The notes under the pieces were generated by a model that ran no database searches, was not told the DNA's origin, and saw nothing but the letters and a program-made list of their open reading frames with translations. A DNA stretch of 64,000 bases from an uncultured Gammaproteobacteria bacterium (GTDB taxonomy: Bacteria; Patescibacteriota; Patescibacteriia; Buchananbacterales; UBA6539), in contig CAZHUO010000002.1 of assembly GCA_964535715.1 (NCBI GenBank), forward strand, positions 16,916 to 80,915. The letters are read 5' to 3'. Positions 5,268-31,210 of this stretch are shown here, piece by piece; the stretch's first letter is position 1; each line of letters opens with the position of its first letter. A program made the translations under genes and the position numbers.

Positions 5268-5366
5268 ACCCCGCACTAATTTTATAATCAATTTTATAAA
5301 TATATCTTTTAATTATAATTATTTAATAATAAATGTATGACTCAAAACACTAAATTAGTGCGGGGT
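5268..5366. repeat. 15-bp perfect GC-rich inverted repeat bracketing the start codon of ORF 5337
   Basis: ACCCCGCACTAATTT (5268-5282) / AAATTAGTGCGGGGT (5352-5366), 69-nt AT-rich spacer. It shares the 12-mer CCCCGCACTAAT with 15634-15645. Confidence 0.8.
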
Positions 5367-12378: not shown

Positions 12379-13962
12379 ATGAAAAAATTTTTTATTTTAG
12401 TTGTCCTTTCTTTTTTAGTTATTCCAATATTCTCAGCCAAAGCAGCAGAAACTCTTGCTCAGCGTCTGAAGGGCTATATCCTTCTTCAGGTTGAAGAGCG
12501 CGGGGAAGCCTGGTATGTAAACCCCGATGATTCAAAAAGATATTACATGAAAGACGGGGTAGTCGCCTATGAAATGCTAAGAGAGTTTGGATTGGGTATT
12601 GCTGATGCAGATTTGGCTAAAATTCCAGTAGGCATTGAAGAAAGGTTTGAAGATACTGATACCGACAAAGACGGCTTAGCCGACAGGCTTGAAGAAGGTT
12701 TGGAAACCAATTTAAATTTAGCAGATACTGACAAAGACGGAGTTTCAGACGGCCAAGAAGTAAAAAGCGGCAATAATCCCTTAGGCGCAGGCAAAATGGC
12801 AGTTGACACCAACTTGGTAGGCAGGCTGAAAGGAAAAATTCTCCTTCAGGTTCAAAAAGCCGGCCAGGCCTGGTATATCAACCCAAAAGACGGCAAGCGT
12901 TACTACATGAAAAACGGCGATGCCGCCTACCAAATCATGAGATTTTTAAGCCTGGGTATTACTAATTCCGATTTGGAGAAGATTACAAAGAGTGATTGGT
13001 CTGTTCCTAATATAAGCCAGTCGAAGTCAGATCATTTTTTTGTTAAAAAAATTACAGATAATTTTTTTTCGCCTAAAATTGATAGTAATAACGGCATATA
13101 CTATTTATCAAGAGGTTCGGAAAATAGTTCAGAACTTAGAAAATTTACATTATCAGCCGATTTAATTATTGCAGAAAAAGGATTATGGAACATATATGTT
13201 GATAATAAAAATAATATCTGGGGCTACAATTCTTATGATGATACTGATGACGGGCTTTATTTTTTGGATAATACAAAATTAACAAAGTTTACTGCTGGTG
13301 ATTATTATTTGAAGTGGGTAAAAGTTGCTTCTGAAAATGATTTTTTACCAAGCAGTTCAATATATGATATAGCTTCAAATTCGGAAGGCTTGTGGATTGC
13401 GACAGATAAAGGTTTGGTGTTTTATAATTATAATACCTGGAAAACATTTACTTATAACGATTGGAAACCGGATGATTATTTCAAAGATAATAGAATAGAC
13501 CAGGTTGAAGCAAATGATTCATATGTGGTATTCAGGTCAGTATTTGATACTTATGTTTATAAGGATGGAAAATTTATTGAAATCAGCGATATGGTTGATG
13601 GTATGTCTGATCTTTATTTGGATGGGAATTTTTTATGGCAATATACTAATAATAGTTATATAACTAAAGGCGTATATAGATATAACATCAATACAAAAGA
13701 ACAAAAATTATTTGGTAATGAAGAAGGATTGGATAATCTTAAAATCGACTCTGTTTCAAAAGATTCTCAAGGAAATCTTTGGTTTGCGGCTAATGCAGAT
13801 AAAGATGAATTTGGTGGATTATACAAATATGACGGCAGCAATTTTACTAAATATTTTAGAGACGAAGGCTCAACTAGTTTCAATTTTTATGATTTATTAA
13901 TTGATTCTAATGATAATATTTATGCATGTGGGTTAGGTGATTTATACAAATTGGAATTTTAA
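12379..13962 (+). CDS. Secreted repeat protein (duplicated RLKGxILLQV...AWY.NP.D.KRYYM domain, TSP3-like DTDKDG repeats, C-terminal propeller-like region)
   Basis: Signal peptide MKKFFILVVLSFLVIPIFSAKA. Two roughly 60-aa repeats. DTDTDKDGLAD and DTDKDGVSDGQE. Confidence 0.7.
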   Translation: MKKFFILVVLSFLVIPIFSAKAAETLAQRLKGYILLQVEERGEAWYVNPDDSKRYYMKDGVVAYEMLREFGLGIADADLAKIPVGIEERFEDTDTDKDGLADRLEEGLETNLNLADTDKDGVSDGQEVKSGNNPLGAGKMAVDTNLVGRLKGKILLQVQKAGQAWYINPKDGKRYYMKNGDAAYQIMRFLSLGITNSDLEKITKSDWSVPNISQSKSDHFFVKKITDNFFSPKIDSNNGIYYLSRGSENSSELRKFTLSADLIIAEKGLWNIYVDNKNNIWGYNSYDDTDDGLYFLDNTKLTKFTAGDYYLKWVKVASENDFLPSSSIYDIASNSEGLWIATDKGLVFYNYNTWKTFTYNDWKPDDYFKDNRIDQVEANDSYVVFRSVFDTYVYKDGKFIEISDMVDGMSDLYLDGNFLWQYTNNSYITKGVYRYNINTKEQKLFGNEEGLDNLKIDSVSKDSQGNLWFAANADKDEFGGLYKYDGSNFTKYFRDEGSTSFNFYDLLIDSNDNIYACGLGDLYKLEF

Positions 13963-14484: not shown

Positions 14485-15216
14485 TTATCGGCCTTCTTTT
14501 TTATCAAACTCTTTATTTTGGATTTCAACCAGTGTCGCTTTCGGCACAGTATCAAATAATTCAATGACGTCTTTATTTATCATCCGAATACAGCCATGGG
14601 AAGCCGGCTCGCCGATAAGGCCTTCCTCGTTAGTTCCATGAATAAATATGCCCCTTTGAGCGGAATTATCATTTATTCCTTTTTCCAAACCCTCAAGCGC
14701 TAAAAGCCTGGTAGTCATTAAATCACTAGGTGCTTGGACGTGCTCGGTATATATTGTAGTTTTGCCTTTTTTGCTTTGTTTTTCAAAAACAGTCCCTAAC
14801 TCTGCATTGTCGCCGATTTTAGCAGATATGCGGTGAGTTCCAAAAGGCGTTTTATTGCTATTATTTTTATTGCTAATACCTTTGGCAGCGGTTGAAATAT
14901 TATATGATTTGACAATTTGGTTATCTTTTACAAGAAGCATTTCCTGACGTTCAGGGTTAATGACTATGGCGAATTCTTCGGGTTTTAAATTGAAGTTGCT
15001 GGTTAATTTTTCTACGCTTTCCTTGATTTCTTCCCAGATTTGCTCCGGCGTTCTTTCTTGCTCTTTTTGTTCTGCGTCAGCTGATTTTAAAGAAAGCAGT
15101 TCTTTGGCAGCTAAAGCGCCAAAAAAGGCCTGTTTTAAAAATTCACGACGAGTTGGCTTGTTATTTTTTTCAGTTTTAGATTCTTCCGTTTCCGGATTAA
15201 ATGTTTCTTTTTCCAT
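14485..15216 (-). CDS. L,D-transpeptidase (YkuD family) with a Tat-like signal
   Basis: [15 protein letters not shown]. Catalytic [23 protein letters not shown]. Confidence 0.85.
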
Positions 15217-15236
15217 AAGAAATAATGTAATTTATT

Positions 15237-15585
15237 GGCGACGTAGGGCGAGAGTCCCGCACCTATTTTACTCATCAATCATTTTCAAGATTAATTTTTT
15301 CTACAGTATAAAATAAATTATTTAACCTAAACAGTGATCAGTAAAATAGGTGCGGGATCTAGTTAAGCCGCTACGACGCAGGTTTAATTAATGAATCTTA
15401 TCGTGAAAAGGGAGCCATCAAAGGGTGAAATACCCGAAAGCGCTCCGTCGCCAAAGCGGTACTTATCCAGTTTTGACGCGTCAACGACTTGTCCCGATTA
15501 ATCCTTCGCCTTTGGCGGAGTGAAAAATCTTAGATCCCGTCTTATTCATATCTAATTATAAAGCGGGACTCCGTGGTTAATACCC
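15237..15585. mobile_element. 349-bp GC-rich structured non-coding insertion with a 6-bp TTTATT target duplication (MITE-like / mobile ncRNA candidate)
   Basis: The string ATAATGTAATTTATTAAATATATT-TGG is contiguous at 16122-16148. Here it is split after TTTATT (15231-15236) and resumes with TTTATT (15586-15591). Subterminal IR GAGTCCCGC / GCGGGACTC. An 18-bp stem at 15255-15272 / 15340-15357. Confidence 0.5.
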
Positions 15586-15600
15586 TTTATTAAATATATT

Positions 15601-15765
15601 TGGTCGGGCTGGGGAGATTCGAACTCCCGACCTCCCCGCACTAATGTCCGCGAATTGGCATTTTTGAAATTTAAAGTTAGATTAGCGCGAACACCGCCTG
15701 CGGCTGGTATTTCAAGAGATGAGACAAGATAATAGACATGGTGCGGGGCAGGCATCATCCCGAAC
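15601..15765 (-). pseudogene. Disrupted tRNA-Pro remnant (3' part only, interrupted by a 119-bp insert)
   Basis: 15601-15633 is identical to the CCA, acceptor, T arm and variable loop of the intact tRNA. 15753-15765 (catcatcccgaac) is a mutated anticodon stem/loop. No 5' half is present. Confidence 0.7.
15634..15752. repeat. 119-bp IR-flanked insert at the variable-loop/anticodon-stem junction of the tRNA remnant
   Basis: CCCCGCAC (15634-15641) and GTGCGGGG (15741-15748). The same CCCCGCACTAAT word occurs at 5270-5281. Confidence 0.55.
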
Positions 15766-15790
15766 TTAAGTAAAGCAATTTTTAATTCTC

Positions 15791-15847
15791 TCGGGCTGGG
15801 GAGATTCGAACTCCCGACCTCATCGTCCCGAACGATGCGCGCTAGCC
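15791..15847 (-). pseudogene. tRNA-Pro 3' fragment (D-loop to acceptor, no CCA)
   Basis: 57 of 57 identical to 16149-16205 of the intact tRNA. It diverges on both sides. Confidence 0.8.
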
Positions 15848-16123
15848 CCCGCCAGAGGCGGGTCGGCCTTTGGCGGAAGCTGCTCTAATAATTATATTAC
15901 GAACTTGTCTTCCAAATCCACTTTTGTAAAATTTTTCTCTCATAATAGCATCCTGTTCGCATAAGTATTTTTCAAAATATAATAATATTAGATGACCATT
16001 CTCACGTGTCCATTTGTTCGATTTCTGATTATGTTGTTTTAATCTGTCTTCTGGATTAATTTTTGAGTAACCGACGTATATCTTTCCATTTTTTATACTT
16101 TTTAAAAAATATACATAAAACAT
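15842..16123 (-). CDS. GIY-YIG nuclease family protein
   Basis: MFYVYFLKSIKNGKIYVGYS...RLKQHN...REKFYKS. The stop TAG (15842-15844) lies inside the tRNA fragment. The GC-hairpin-encoded tail is AASAKGRPASGGG. Confidence 0.75.
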   Translation of the reverse strand: MFYVYFLKSIKNGKIYVGYSKINPEDRLKQHNQKSNKWTRENGHLILLYFEKYLCEQDAIMREKFYKSGFGRQVRNIIIRAASAKGRPASGGG

Positions 16124-16145
16124 AATGTAATTTATTAAATATATT

Positions 16146-16222
16146 TGGTCGGGCTGGGGAGATTCGAACTCCCGACCTCATCGTCCCGAACGATGCGCGC
16201 TAGCCAGCTGCGCTACAGCCCG
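16146..16222 (-). tRNA. tRNA-Pro (anticodon CGG), CCA encoded
   Basis: CGGGCTG-TA-GCGC-AGCTGGCTA-GCGC-G-CATCG-TTCGGGA-CGATG-AGGTC-GGGAG-TTCGAAT-CTCCC-CAGCCCG-A-CCA folds as a canonical 77-nt cloverleaf. Confidence 0.9.
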
Positions 16223-19124: not shown

Positions 19125-19266
19125 CAAATTCCAAATTACAAATAATAAACAAATCTCAAATTATAAATTCAAAATTCCAACGGGTAAGCTTAAGGGTTTG
19201 TGATTTGTGATTTTAAACATTGTAATTTGTTTGAAATTTGAGATTTGGAATTTGTAATTTATTATT
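19125..19266. repeat. Composite AT-rich word hairpin (AAATTCCAAAT / AAATTACAAAT / AAATCTCAAAT words)
   Basis: AAATCTCAAATT (left) / AATTTGAGATTT (right) and AAATTACAAAT / ATTTGTAATTT are complementary. It overlaps the track's extended N-terminus of the Nudix ORF. Confidence 0.6.
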
Positions 19267-31007: not shown

Positions 31008-31210
31008 TTGTCATTCTGAATTTATTACTGCTTTGTCATCCTGAATTCATTTCAGGATCCAGTAAAGCCTAGAGTGACAAGTCTAGAAAAAAAGCACCCC
31101 CTTTGTCATCCTGAAATTGGTTCAGGATCTGGAAAAGTCTAGAAAGCACCTCCTTGTCATTTCGAGCGACTCACCGAAGCCTAAAAGGCGGAGGTGAGGA
31201 GTCGAGAAAT
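31008..31210 (+). repeat. Array of four TTGTCAT(C/T)(C/T)(C/T)GA(A/G) hairpin repeats upstream of the GIY-YIG gene
   Basis: Copies at 31008, 31033, 31103 and 31154. Hairpins ATCCTGAA-n5-TTCAGGAT occur twice. TTTCGAGCGACTCACC...GGTGAGGAGTCGAGAAA also forms a hairpin. Confidence 0.75.

Follow-up and report, generated by a model that had tools for sequence, protein, structure and literature searches.

The window (the whole stretch of 64,000 nt that was analysed, from an uncultured Patescibacteria-like bacterium) carries on its minus strand, in this order, an intact tRNA-Pro(CGG) gene, a 22-nt spacer, a gene for a GIY-YIG nuclease, a double GC hairpin, an orphan 3' fragment of tRNA-Pro (fragment C), 24 nt, and a second orphan fragment (fragment A). 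Beyond the CCA of fragment A, the same strand continues into a spacer holding the 349-bp block studied here, then 20 nt, and then the gene of a YkuD L,D-transpeptidase (Table 1), whose nearest homologs, in a poorly sampled lineage, are ~50% identical. The double hairpin, GCTTCCGCCAAAGGCCGACCCGCCTCTGGCGGGG (15881-15848), lies at the 3' end of the GIY-YIG gene. The continuation of fragment A, GTTCGGGATGATG (anticodon loop and stem), is found at 15766-15754, beyond a hairpin named H2; H2 is inserted into this tRNA-Pro 3' fragment, with GACCTC on one side and ATCATCCCGAAC on the other, whereas copies B and C and the outgroup tRNA lack it. A GIY-YIG nuclease cassette has left a graveyard of tRNA-Pro fragments at the locus.

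Table 1. Coordinates of the features discussed, in their order along the window
Feature	Position	Strand	Remarks
Hairpin H1, 15-bp arms ACCCCGCACTAATTT, 69-nt AT-rich interior	5268..5366	.	intergenic; z -4.2
YkuD L,D-transpeptidase gene	14485..15216	-	start codon 20 nt from block
Left TTTATT	15231..15236	.	apparent target-site duplication
349-bp block (apparent insertion)	15237..15585	.	no ORF; 41.8% GC; splits a 58-bp sequence
Left end module: GG, 13 nt, GAGTCCCGC, hairpin interior, GCGGGATCTA	15237..15363	+	sequence reading
Hairpin H3, perfect 18-bp arms TCCCGCACCTATTTTACT, 67-nt AT-rich interior	15255..15357	.	DNA z -7.0
Central 169 bp: GGAGC...GCTCC, CGCCAAAG/CTTTGGCG pair, palindrome TTGACGCGTCAA	15362..15530	.	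fold z -1.6 / -1.2
Right end module, inverted: GG, 12 nt, GAGTCCCGC, 23 nt, CGGGATCTA	15529..15585	-	
Right TTTATT	15586..15591	.	
Orphan tRNA-Pro fragment A, T-arm and acceptor 3' strand	15604..15634	-	then CCA and block-bearing flank
Hairpin H2, feet CCCCGCAC / GTGCGGGG, 117 bp	15635..15751	.	
Orphan tRNA-Pro 3' fragment C, 57 nt	15791..15847	-	identical to 16149-16205; no CCA
GIY-YIG nuclease gene, 93 aa	15842..16123	-	start 22 nt after tRNA
Uninterrupted paralog ("empty site")	16122..16179	.	outgroup collinear with empty site
Intact tRNA-Pro(CGG), encoded CCA	16146..16222	-	

Relatives of the GIY-YIG protein are 61-69% identical, and both of those with organism names are Patescibacteria. 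At all four GIY-YIG loci that we fetched, the gene starts 1-6 nt past a complete tRNA (Pro-GGG in three, Val-TAC in one), ends in a conserved double hairpin, TTCCGCCAAAGGCGGA-CCCGCCTCTGGCGGGG, and precedes a second copy of that tRNA's 3' part, often with more small hairpin insertions. The layout of the cassette in the window is the layout of these four other Patescibacteria loci.

Comparison of the block with the four loci by blastn returned no similarity, and the block and the first hairpin of the cassette have only a 12-mer, TCCGCCAAAGGC, in common; the block is no part of the conserved GIY-YIG cassette.

Two other readings of the immediate surroundings were rejected. A tmRNA-like fold at 15601-15766, outside the block, scored 16.7 bits against a threshold of 47 (matched span 15601-15762) and was also called as tmRNA by low-threshold ARAGORN. 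Its supposed 5' acceptor strand is, however, the tRNA-Pro anticodon loop and stem (GTTCGGGATGATG vs GTTCGGGACGATG), and the pair present is G3:C70, not G3:U70. A cis-regulatory leader of the transpeptidase gene was dismissed as well: the locus of the closest homolog has a 30-nt gap with no leader, and two further homolog loci (L142 and L143) showed no similarity.

The insertion site and its empty counterpart

The first-pass annotation had proposed that the block is an insertion flanked by a TTTATT duplication. A check of the coordinates confirmed that the block splits a 58-bp sequence which is found unbroken ~900 bp away: the left flank, ATAATGTAATTTATT (15222-15236), is identical to 16122-16136 (15 nt), the right flank (15586-15634) is identical to 16131-16179 (49 nt), and the two matching flanks overlap by 6 bp, the TTTATT that stands on either side of the block. 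The empty site comprises the T-arm and acceptor end of tRNA-Pro, the CCA and a 24-nt 3' flank with a single TTTATT (16131-16136), and the block entered 15 nt past the CCA of a tRNA-Pro gene copy, within the native 3' spacer of that copy. Since two 25-nt windows in the AT-rich DNA found here have a 19% chance of containing a common 6-mer, the hexamer duplication alone is weak evidence of insertion.

We located an outgroup locus via UppS (75% identical); it has the same gene order on both sides and a tRNA-Pro(CGG). The flank of the outgroup tRNA-Pro aligns with the uninterrupted spacer across the insertion point, a moderate match in AT-rich sequence, and the locus contains no transpeptidase gene, GIY-YIG gene, tRNA fragments, or anything block-like. 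Collinearity with the uninterrupted version indicates that the empty state is ancestral and that the block came in; the block is then an insertion, and the paralog has suffered no deletion. The left end of the block adjoins the transpeptidase gene in six Logan contigs, which stem from three projects. One of these contigs represents a strain in which a 1.6-kb gene is missing and nearby DNA diverges by as much as 6%. Presence of the block beside the same gene in these contigs, a diverged strain included, indicates an inherited insertion and no assembly artefact. Occurrence at this site in all relatives had been named as counter-evidence; the outgroup is without the block, and the only relatives found to carry it were strains of the same species. 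The paralogous empty site and the collinear outgroup flank together bear out the proposed insertion.

End modules, hairpins and fold of the block

The GC content of the block (41.8%) exceeds that of the window (35.0%), and its earlier description as GC-rich holds in this relative sense only. Its longest ORF has 36 aa, a search of 5.8 billion protein sequences with its six-frame translation gave no relative, and ORFs lying within the block or running over its edges had no exact record in public assemblies, in agreement with the annotated lack of a convincing ORF. Perfect GC-containing inverted pairs (at least 8 bp, within 400 nt) number 44 in the 64-kb window, and five of them lie inside the block, a density of inverted repeats far above the background of the window. 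The complementarities that had been listed are all exact: GAGTCCCGC (15252-60 / 15563-71), the 18-bp stem (15255-72 / 15340-57) and CGCCAAAG (15449-56) with CTTTGGCG (15510-17) are reverse complements, the palindrome TTGACGCGTCAA lies at 15473-84, and GGAGC (15411-15) with GCTCC (15441-45) encloses GGGTGAAATACCCGAAAG. One position needed correction, as CGGGATCTA (15353-61) pairs with 15531-39 and not with 15530-38. The five pairs include an additional one, TTGGCGACG (15235-43 / 15446-54).

The two ends of the block are inverted copies of one module, GAGTCCCGC...CGGGATCTA, in which GAGTCCCGC starts 15 nt (left) or 14 nt (right) from tips with the bases GG. The true terminal inverted repeats are only 2 nt long (GG/CC tips), the exact 9-bp repeats being subterminal and followed by a second common 9-mer. 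Read as sequence, the modules have 9+9 nt in common in inverted orientation and only 5+6 nt in direct orientation. The left module is inflated by H3, with its perfect 18-bp stem and 67-nt interior; the right one makes a short imperfect hairpin (15531-15572) that is weak alone as DNA (z -1.2). Such paired inverted end modules are transposon-like. The four TCCCG-containing arms of the block are four copies of one motif in the order -> <- -> <-. Because all four have a common core, the cross-pairings among them (helices a, b and c) are automatic and mutually exclusive.

The block had also been called highly structured. As a whole it folds well below shuffles, with z-scores of -5.3 (plus strand) and -5.7 (minus strand). 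The value drops to -2.2 once H3, the source of most of the fold energy, is removed, and the 169-nt centre folds no better than shuffles (z -1.6 / -1.2). Most of the apparent RNA structure of the block is a by-product of the four alternating motif copies and the 18-bp hairpin. The named helices are purely Watson-Crick and therefore fit both strands equally. Single-stranded stretches and loops are A-rich on the plus strand (GAAA, GAAAG, CAAA, GUGAAAAG), the one feature that hints at an RNA. A consensus scan inside the block found no plus-strand promoter-like site and no terminator-like site, its sole match being a 9/12 promoter match on the minus strand, in the loop of H3.

Rfam at gathering thresholds gave only tRNA matches, none on the block; at E<=10 the block drew only hairpin-type microRNA noise hits, and a lax scan of the hairpin-less part (15358-15600) gave a single hit (E=7.5) and nothing useful. 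The housekeeping RNAs that had been named as possible refutation, RNase P and tmRNA, are thus without a match on the block. These two classes and group I and II introns were rejected on the Rfam result and on a helix layout in which no P2/P3 precedes the P4-like strand. A terminal G, as in a group I intron, is not obtained with any boundary within the TTTATT ambiguity.

The hairpin foot of H3, CCCGCAC/GTGCGGG, recurs in two other hairpins of the window, H1 and H2. CCCGCAC occurs seven times in the window, compared to ~1.2 expected (an estimate from base composition), and six of the seven sites make the three inverted pairs of H1, H2 and H3, 88-106 nt apart. H1 is flanked by TCAA on both sides. 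What the three hairpins have in common is the feet only, YCCCGCACYWAT...ATWRGTGCGGGR; their interiors are unalignable. Common feet around unrelated interiors suggest a protein recognition site over copies of one element, and we consider the feet a candidate site of this kind.

Further copies and contig ends

The annotation had called for extra copies to be sought, and none turned up in the 64-kb window or in the viral, genome and metagenome collections. Viral contigs gave no match to two block patterns or to one H-family pattern, and the right-module pattern met three chance matches there, in GC-rich coding DNA only. The exact 22-mer of the right end was absent from genome_contigs and metagenome_contigs, and a looser two-gap pattern of 23 bases returned at least 120 chance matches from metagenomes (median GC 67.5%), none of them block-like by blastn. 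BLAST against phages and plasmids gave nothing relevant. A scan of 29 ORFs, about half of those in the window, revealed no transposase or recombinase, and nothing like TnpA, TnpB or an omega RNA was matched in the Rfam scans and these 29 ORFs.

Ends of Logan contigs gave an indirect clue. Four contigs break off precisely where the 9-bp arm does, at 15260; two others stop at 15271, a single nucleotide before the 18-bp arm is complete (15272), and one break falls at 5350 in H1, 2 nt off the arm end. A control contig, L002, runs into the known tRNA repeat of 57 nt and stops after exactly 30 nt of it (k-1). In four independent Logan assemblies the 30-mer 15231-15260, whose first base is that of TTTATT, is accordingly an assembly-graph branch point, and the four stops at 15260, taken with the control, indicate that this 30-mer (TTTATT and 24 nt of the block) occurs in two contexts in the samples concerned. 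The second context would be either another copy that also follows TTTATT or an inversion past the 9-bp arm.

Possible origins of the block and known systems

The explanation that we tentatively favour sees in the block a MITE-like insertion, non-autonomous and mobilised in trans, whose family is unknown. Its ends would be bound, at the module, by a transposase or recombinase whose gene lies in another part of the genome or in a co-resident element; the enzyme would bring the ends together, cut the target with a 6-nt stagger and join the element in. Other CCCGCAC-footed hairpins of the window, among which H2 is also an insertion, may be substrates of this enzyme too. The block is short (349 bp) and without a transposase gene (longest ORF, 36 aa), and it has a target duplication and an empty site, with the 19% chance of a common 6-mer in such windows to be kept in mind, which leaves the duplication by itself weak. 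Against this explanation stand the single known copy, none other having been found in the 64-kb window, three public collections or proteins; the tips, inverted repeats of only 2 nt (GG/CC) with the exact 9-bp repeat 15/14 nt inside; the lack of a transposase or recombinase among the 29 ORFs scanned, about half of those in the window; and the likeness of H1, H2 and H3 in their feet only, which is not how copies of one MITE look. GG...CC tips together with a 6-bp duplication are not known from any IS family.

Several other processes at the DNA level were weighed. It is improbable that the block is a non-autonomous IS200/IS605-type element (PATE) moving as single-stranded DNA, which would have inserted 3' of a target TTTATT without duplication, the second TTTATT being its own right tip; TnpA would then recognise the subterminal hairpins, and the centre could contain the scaffold of a TnpB guide RNA. 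The IS200/IS605 family uses AT-rich 4-6-nt targets such as TTTAT, and TTTATT is found on both sides of the block, at one known insertion. The hairpins begin 15-18 nt from the left end and finish 13-14 nt from the right end, distances that we take to resemble those of IS608, and the branch point at the 30-mer from TTTATT in four independent assemblies also fits. However, hairpins of this family are similar and in the same sense on one strand, whereas the end modules here are mutually inverted (9+9 against 5+6 nt); the left hairpin, at 103 nt, is unusually long, and the Rfam scans and the 29 ORFs scanned gave nothing resembling TnpA, TnpB or omega RNA. We likewise doubt that the block is a recombination switch (an inverton or shufflon-like module) before the transpeptidase gene, in which a site-specific recombinase could flip segments of 67, 169 or 302 bp between four alternating sites. 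The -> <- -> <- order of the motif copies agrees with such a switch, as do the conserved feet and variable interiors of H1, H2 and H3, expected of the sites of one invertase, the position of H1 and the block directly upstream of genes, and the four contigs ending exactly at 15260, as expected with coexisting orientations and calibrated by L002. Yet no recombinase gene is nearby or among the other window ORFs scanned, the break points at 15271 and 5350 are off the arm ends by 1 and 2 nt, the 67-bp interior is very short for recombinase synapsis, and an insertion with a duplicated hexamer is left unexplained.

Little likelihood attaches to the block being filler DNA, a one-off scar captured in the repair of a double-strand break made by the neighbouring GIY-YIG nuclease, even though the locus is a repair graveyard in which a GIY-YIG cassette and two orphan fragments accompany an intact tRNA-Pro, the four homologous loci have the same layout with small hairpin insertions in their orphan fragments too, and one copy of the block is known. 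Matching inverted modules at equal distances from both ends would not be expected of a fragment captured at random, the hairpin foot of the block is also present in H1 and H2, and GIY-YIG enzymes leave 2-nt overhangs (I-TevI), not a 6-nt stagger. Slightly less probable still is an ancestral block that the paralog at 16122-16179 lost by replication slippage between two chance TTTATT repeats at the foot of the inverted repeat. Short direct repeats are common (hence the 19% figure), and hairpin-stimulated deletion between flanking repeats is well known, but the outgroup flank aligns with the uninterrupted version, albeit as a moderate match in AT-rich sequence, and the outgroup has nothing block-like. 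An integron cassette was rejected, since the feet CCCGCAC/GTGCGGG and GAGTCCCGC/GCGGGACTC are unlike RYYYAAC...GTTRRRY and TTTATT is unlike TTRRRY; so was a Xer/dif-like site, to which the empty site is only partly similar, with the duplicated hexamer offset from the would-be central region, and a tyrosine-recombinase attP formed from the joined ends, where the bases beside TTTATT are not inverted repeats (5/13 match). An RNA explanation, in which the block would be the gene of a structured non-coding RNA, or a mobile element based on RNA, from a so far undescribed class, seems unlikely to us. The whole-block z-scores, still -2.2 when H3 is left out, speak for it, as does a location among tRNA-derived sequences; the plus strand, with its A-rich unpaired stretches, would be the most likely transcribed strand. 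It is countered by the absence of an Rfam family match, the lax scan of the hairpin-less part included, by a centre indistinguishable from shuffles, by long helices that are perfect Watson-Crick on both strands and, for a, b and c, mutually exclusive through the TCCCG/CGGGA core, by the lack of a plus-strand promoter-like or terminator-like site within the block in the consensus scan, and by the failure to find homologs for covariation. The annotation had left the choice between a mobile element and a mobile structured RNA; the empty site, the collinear outgroup flank, the inverted end modules and the missing ORF uphold the insertion, while for the RNA part the inverted repeats are the sole ground.

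More speculatively, and with small probability, the block, H1 and H2 may represent mobile hairpin modules of Patescibacteria that encode no protein and form a class of their own, so far undescribed; these would insert into tRNA genes and their flanks and be mobilised in trans, perhaps by the minimal ~90-aa GIY-YIG nucleases at the same tRNA loci or by some recombinase, the modules possibly serving as invertible switches for an adjacent gene. If the block is only an orphan MITE-like insertion, it carries little weight, being one more small mobile element in a lineage with streamlined genomes where such elements are believed to be few. A hairpin family with a common mobilising enzyme would, if true, be more important, especially if that enzyme were linked to the tRNA-targeting GIY-YIG cassettes; this link would explain tRNA loci as rearrangement hot spots in tiny genomes and would make a minimal mobile-DNA system accessible to study. 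More promising as leads than the block are the CCCGCAC hairpin family and the GIY-YIG cassette that recurrently targets tRNA genes.

Among known systems, the bacterial MITEs (Correia of Neisseria, RUP of Streptococcus pneumoniae, ERIC/IRU of enterobacteria) resemble the block in their size of 100-400 bp, absence of an ORF, inverted-repeat ends foldable into a long hairpin, target duplication and intergenic position next to genes. In Correia, RUP and ERIC, however, the terminal repeats run without a gap for 20-30 bp, a genome contains many near-identical copies, and the duplication is mostly TA, whereas the block has 2-nt tips with 9-bp subterminal repeats, a single known copy, a 6-bp duplication and no known autonomous partner. 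PATEs and REP/REPIN sequences, mobilised by Y1/HUH enzymes, are similar in having hairpins a fixed short distance inside their ends, a short AT-rich target and a family of conserved-foot hairpins scattered in intergenic DNA; here, in contrast, the end modules are inverted, the target seems to be duplicated, the hairpins enclose long AT-rich interiors without mutual similarity, and no Y1 transposase, RAYT or TnpB was among the ORFs scanned. Invertons and shufflons (fimS, the invertible promoters of Bacteroides, the R64 shufflon) also place inverted copies of a short site before a surface or cell-wall gene, with sites conserved and interiors variable, but the block has no recombinase nearby, its segments are very short, and as a whole it is an insertion with a duplicated target. 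The surrounding locus, with a nuclease gene beside a tRNA and duplicated tRNA 3' parts, is like the free-standing GIY-YIG homing cassettes (T4 SegB, in a tRNA gene cluster), from which the case described here differs in a 349-bp block that lies outside the conserved cassette and has only the 12-mer TCCGCCAAAGGC in common with it.

Variable segments around the transpeptidase gene

The outgroup contig L008, which carries tRNA-Pro(CGG), lacked the entire stretch 14485-16145 (i.e., the YkuD L,D-transpeptidase gene, the 349-bp ORF-less block, the tRNA fragments, and the GIY-YIG gene) and had ~290 nt in its place. Because of this absence, and since the closest homologs of the transpeptidase were just ~50% identical and the few named by organism belonged to other phyla (Chlorobiales, Omnitrophota, Flavobacteriales), sequence comparison suggests that 14485-16145 is an islet gained horizontally at tRNA-Pro. 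We noticed that L142 (1-40) and L143 (1-25), which represent one transpeptidase homolog locus and come from independent assemblies, have an identical first base (GCCCGCTCTAATC...), situated upstream of the homolog gene at a distance of about 90 nt. Illumina adapter sequence was fused to this common start in one of the two, and the start itself may mark a further hairpin or break point.

A 527-aa gene was likewise missing in L008, and also in the near-identical strain L004. This indel has the size of one gene, with similar AT-rich sequences at its borders (GAATTTAAATAATTT... / GAATTTTAATTTAAATTAATTT...).

Hairpins and contig break points

The foot CCCCGCACTAAT...GTGCGGGG was common to hairpins H1, H2, and the big hairpin of the block (15255-15357); their interiors were unrelated to one another. 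H1 overlapped a 108-aa ORF at its annotated start, and no target duplication was present around the H2 insertion. Window positions 15260, 15271, and 5350, which fall within hairpin arms or at an arm edge, were shared end points of seven short-read contigs from three projects (Logan; L001, L003-L007). Given that the control contig L002 ended exactly k-1 = 30 nt inside a known repeat, these shared ends point to a second context for the 30-mers concerned, implying either a further copy or an allele in inverted or variant form.

A tmRNA-like fold of 165 nt at 15601-15766 (minus strand; Rfam, 16.7 bits) was called by ARAGORN at low threshold. We rejected the tmRNA reading: the fold is a chance product of tRNA-Pro parts (anticodon loop, T-arm, and acceptor end) and hairpin H2, and its G3:C70 pair makes it implausible as an alanine acceptor. 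Two other repeats of the window are included in the table.

Coordinates of hairpins, cassettes, and other features
Feature	Sequence	Position	Remarks
Hairpin H1	window	5268-5366	intergenic; TCAA flanking both sides
Hairpin H2	window	15635-15751	117-bp insertion in orphan tRNA-Pro fragment
527-aa gene	window	12379-13962	weak Reg_prop match
Inverted repeat	window	19125-19254	AT-rich; 53-nt arms, 75% complementary; repeat finder
Hairpin-containing 43-mer (CTTTGTCATCCTGAA...TTCAGGATC)	window	31031-31143	two tandem copies 70 nt apart; repeat finder
Cassette	window	15842-16222	
Cassette	locus L137	2924-3340	
Cassette	locus L138	391-1000	
Cassette	loci L139/L140	2924-3420	

A GIY-YIG cassette at tRNA genes

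We observed a recurrent cassette in Patescibacteria, whose parts are, in order, a complete tRNA-Pro or tRNA-Val, a GIY-YIG nuclease gene, a double hairpin, and a tRNA 3' duplicate. The gene, coding for a nuclease of ~90-100 aa, lay 1-22 nt after the tRNA in the window and in four fetched loci with its relatives (L137-L140). Next came the conserved double hairpin TTCCGCCAAAGGCGGA-CCCGCCTCTGGCGGGG, followed by the last part, a copy of the 3' portion of the cassette's own tRNA; small additional CGCC...GGCG hairpin insertions were frequent within the orphan tRNA fragments. A literature search found no published description of a tRNA/GIY-YIG/double-hairpin cassette, and the arrangement looks like a homing cassette targeting tRNA genes.
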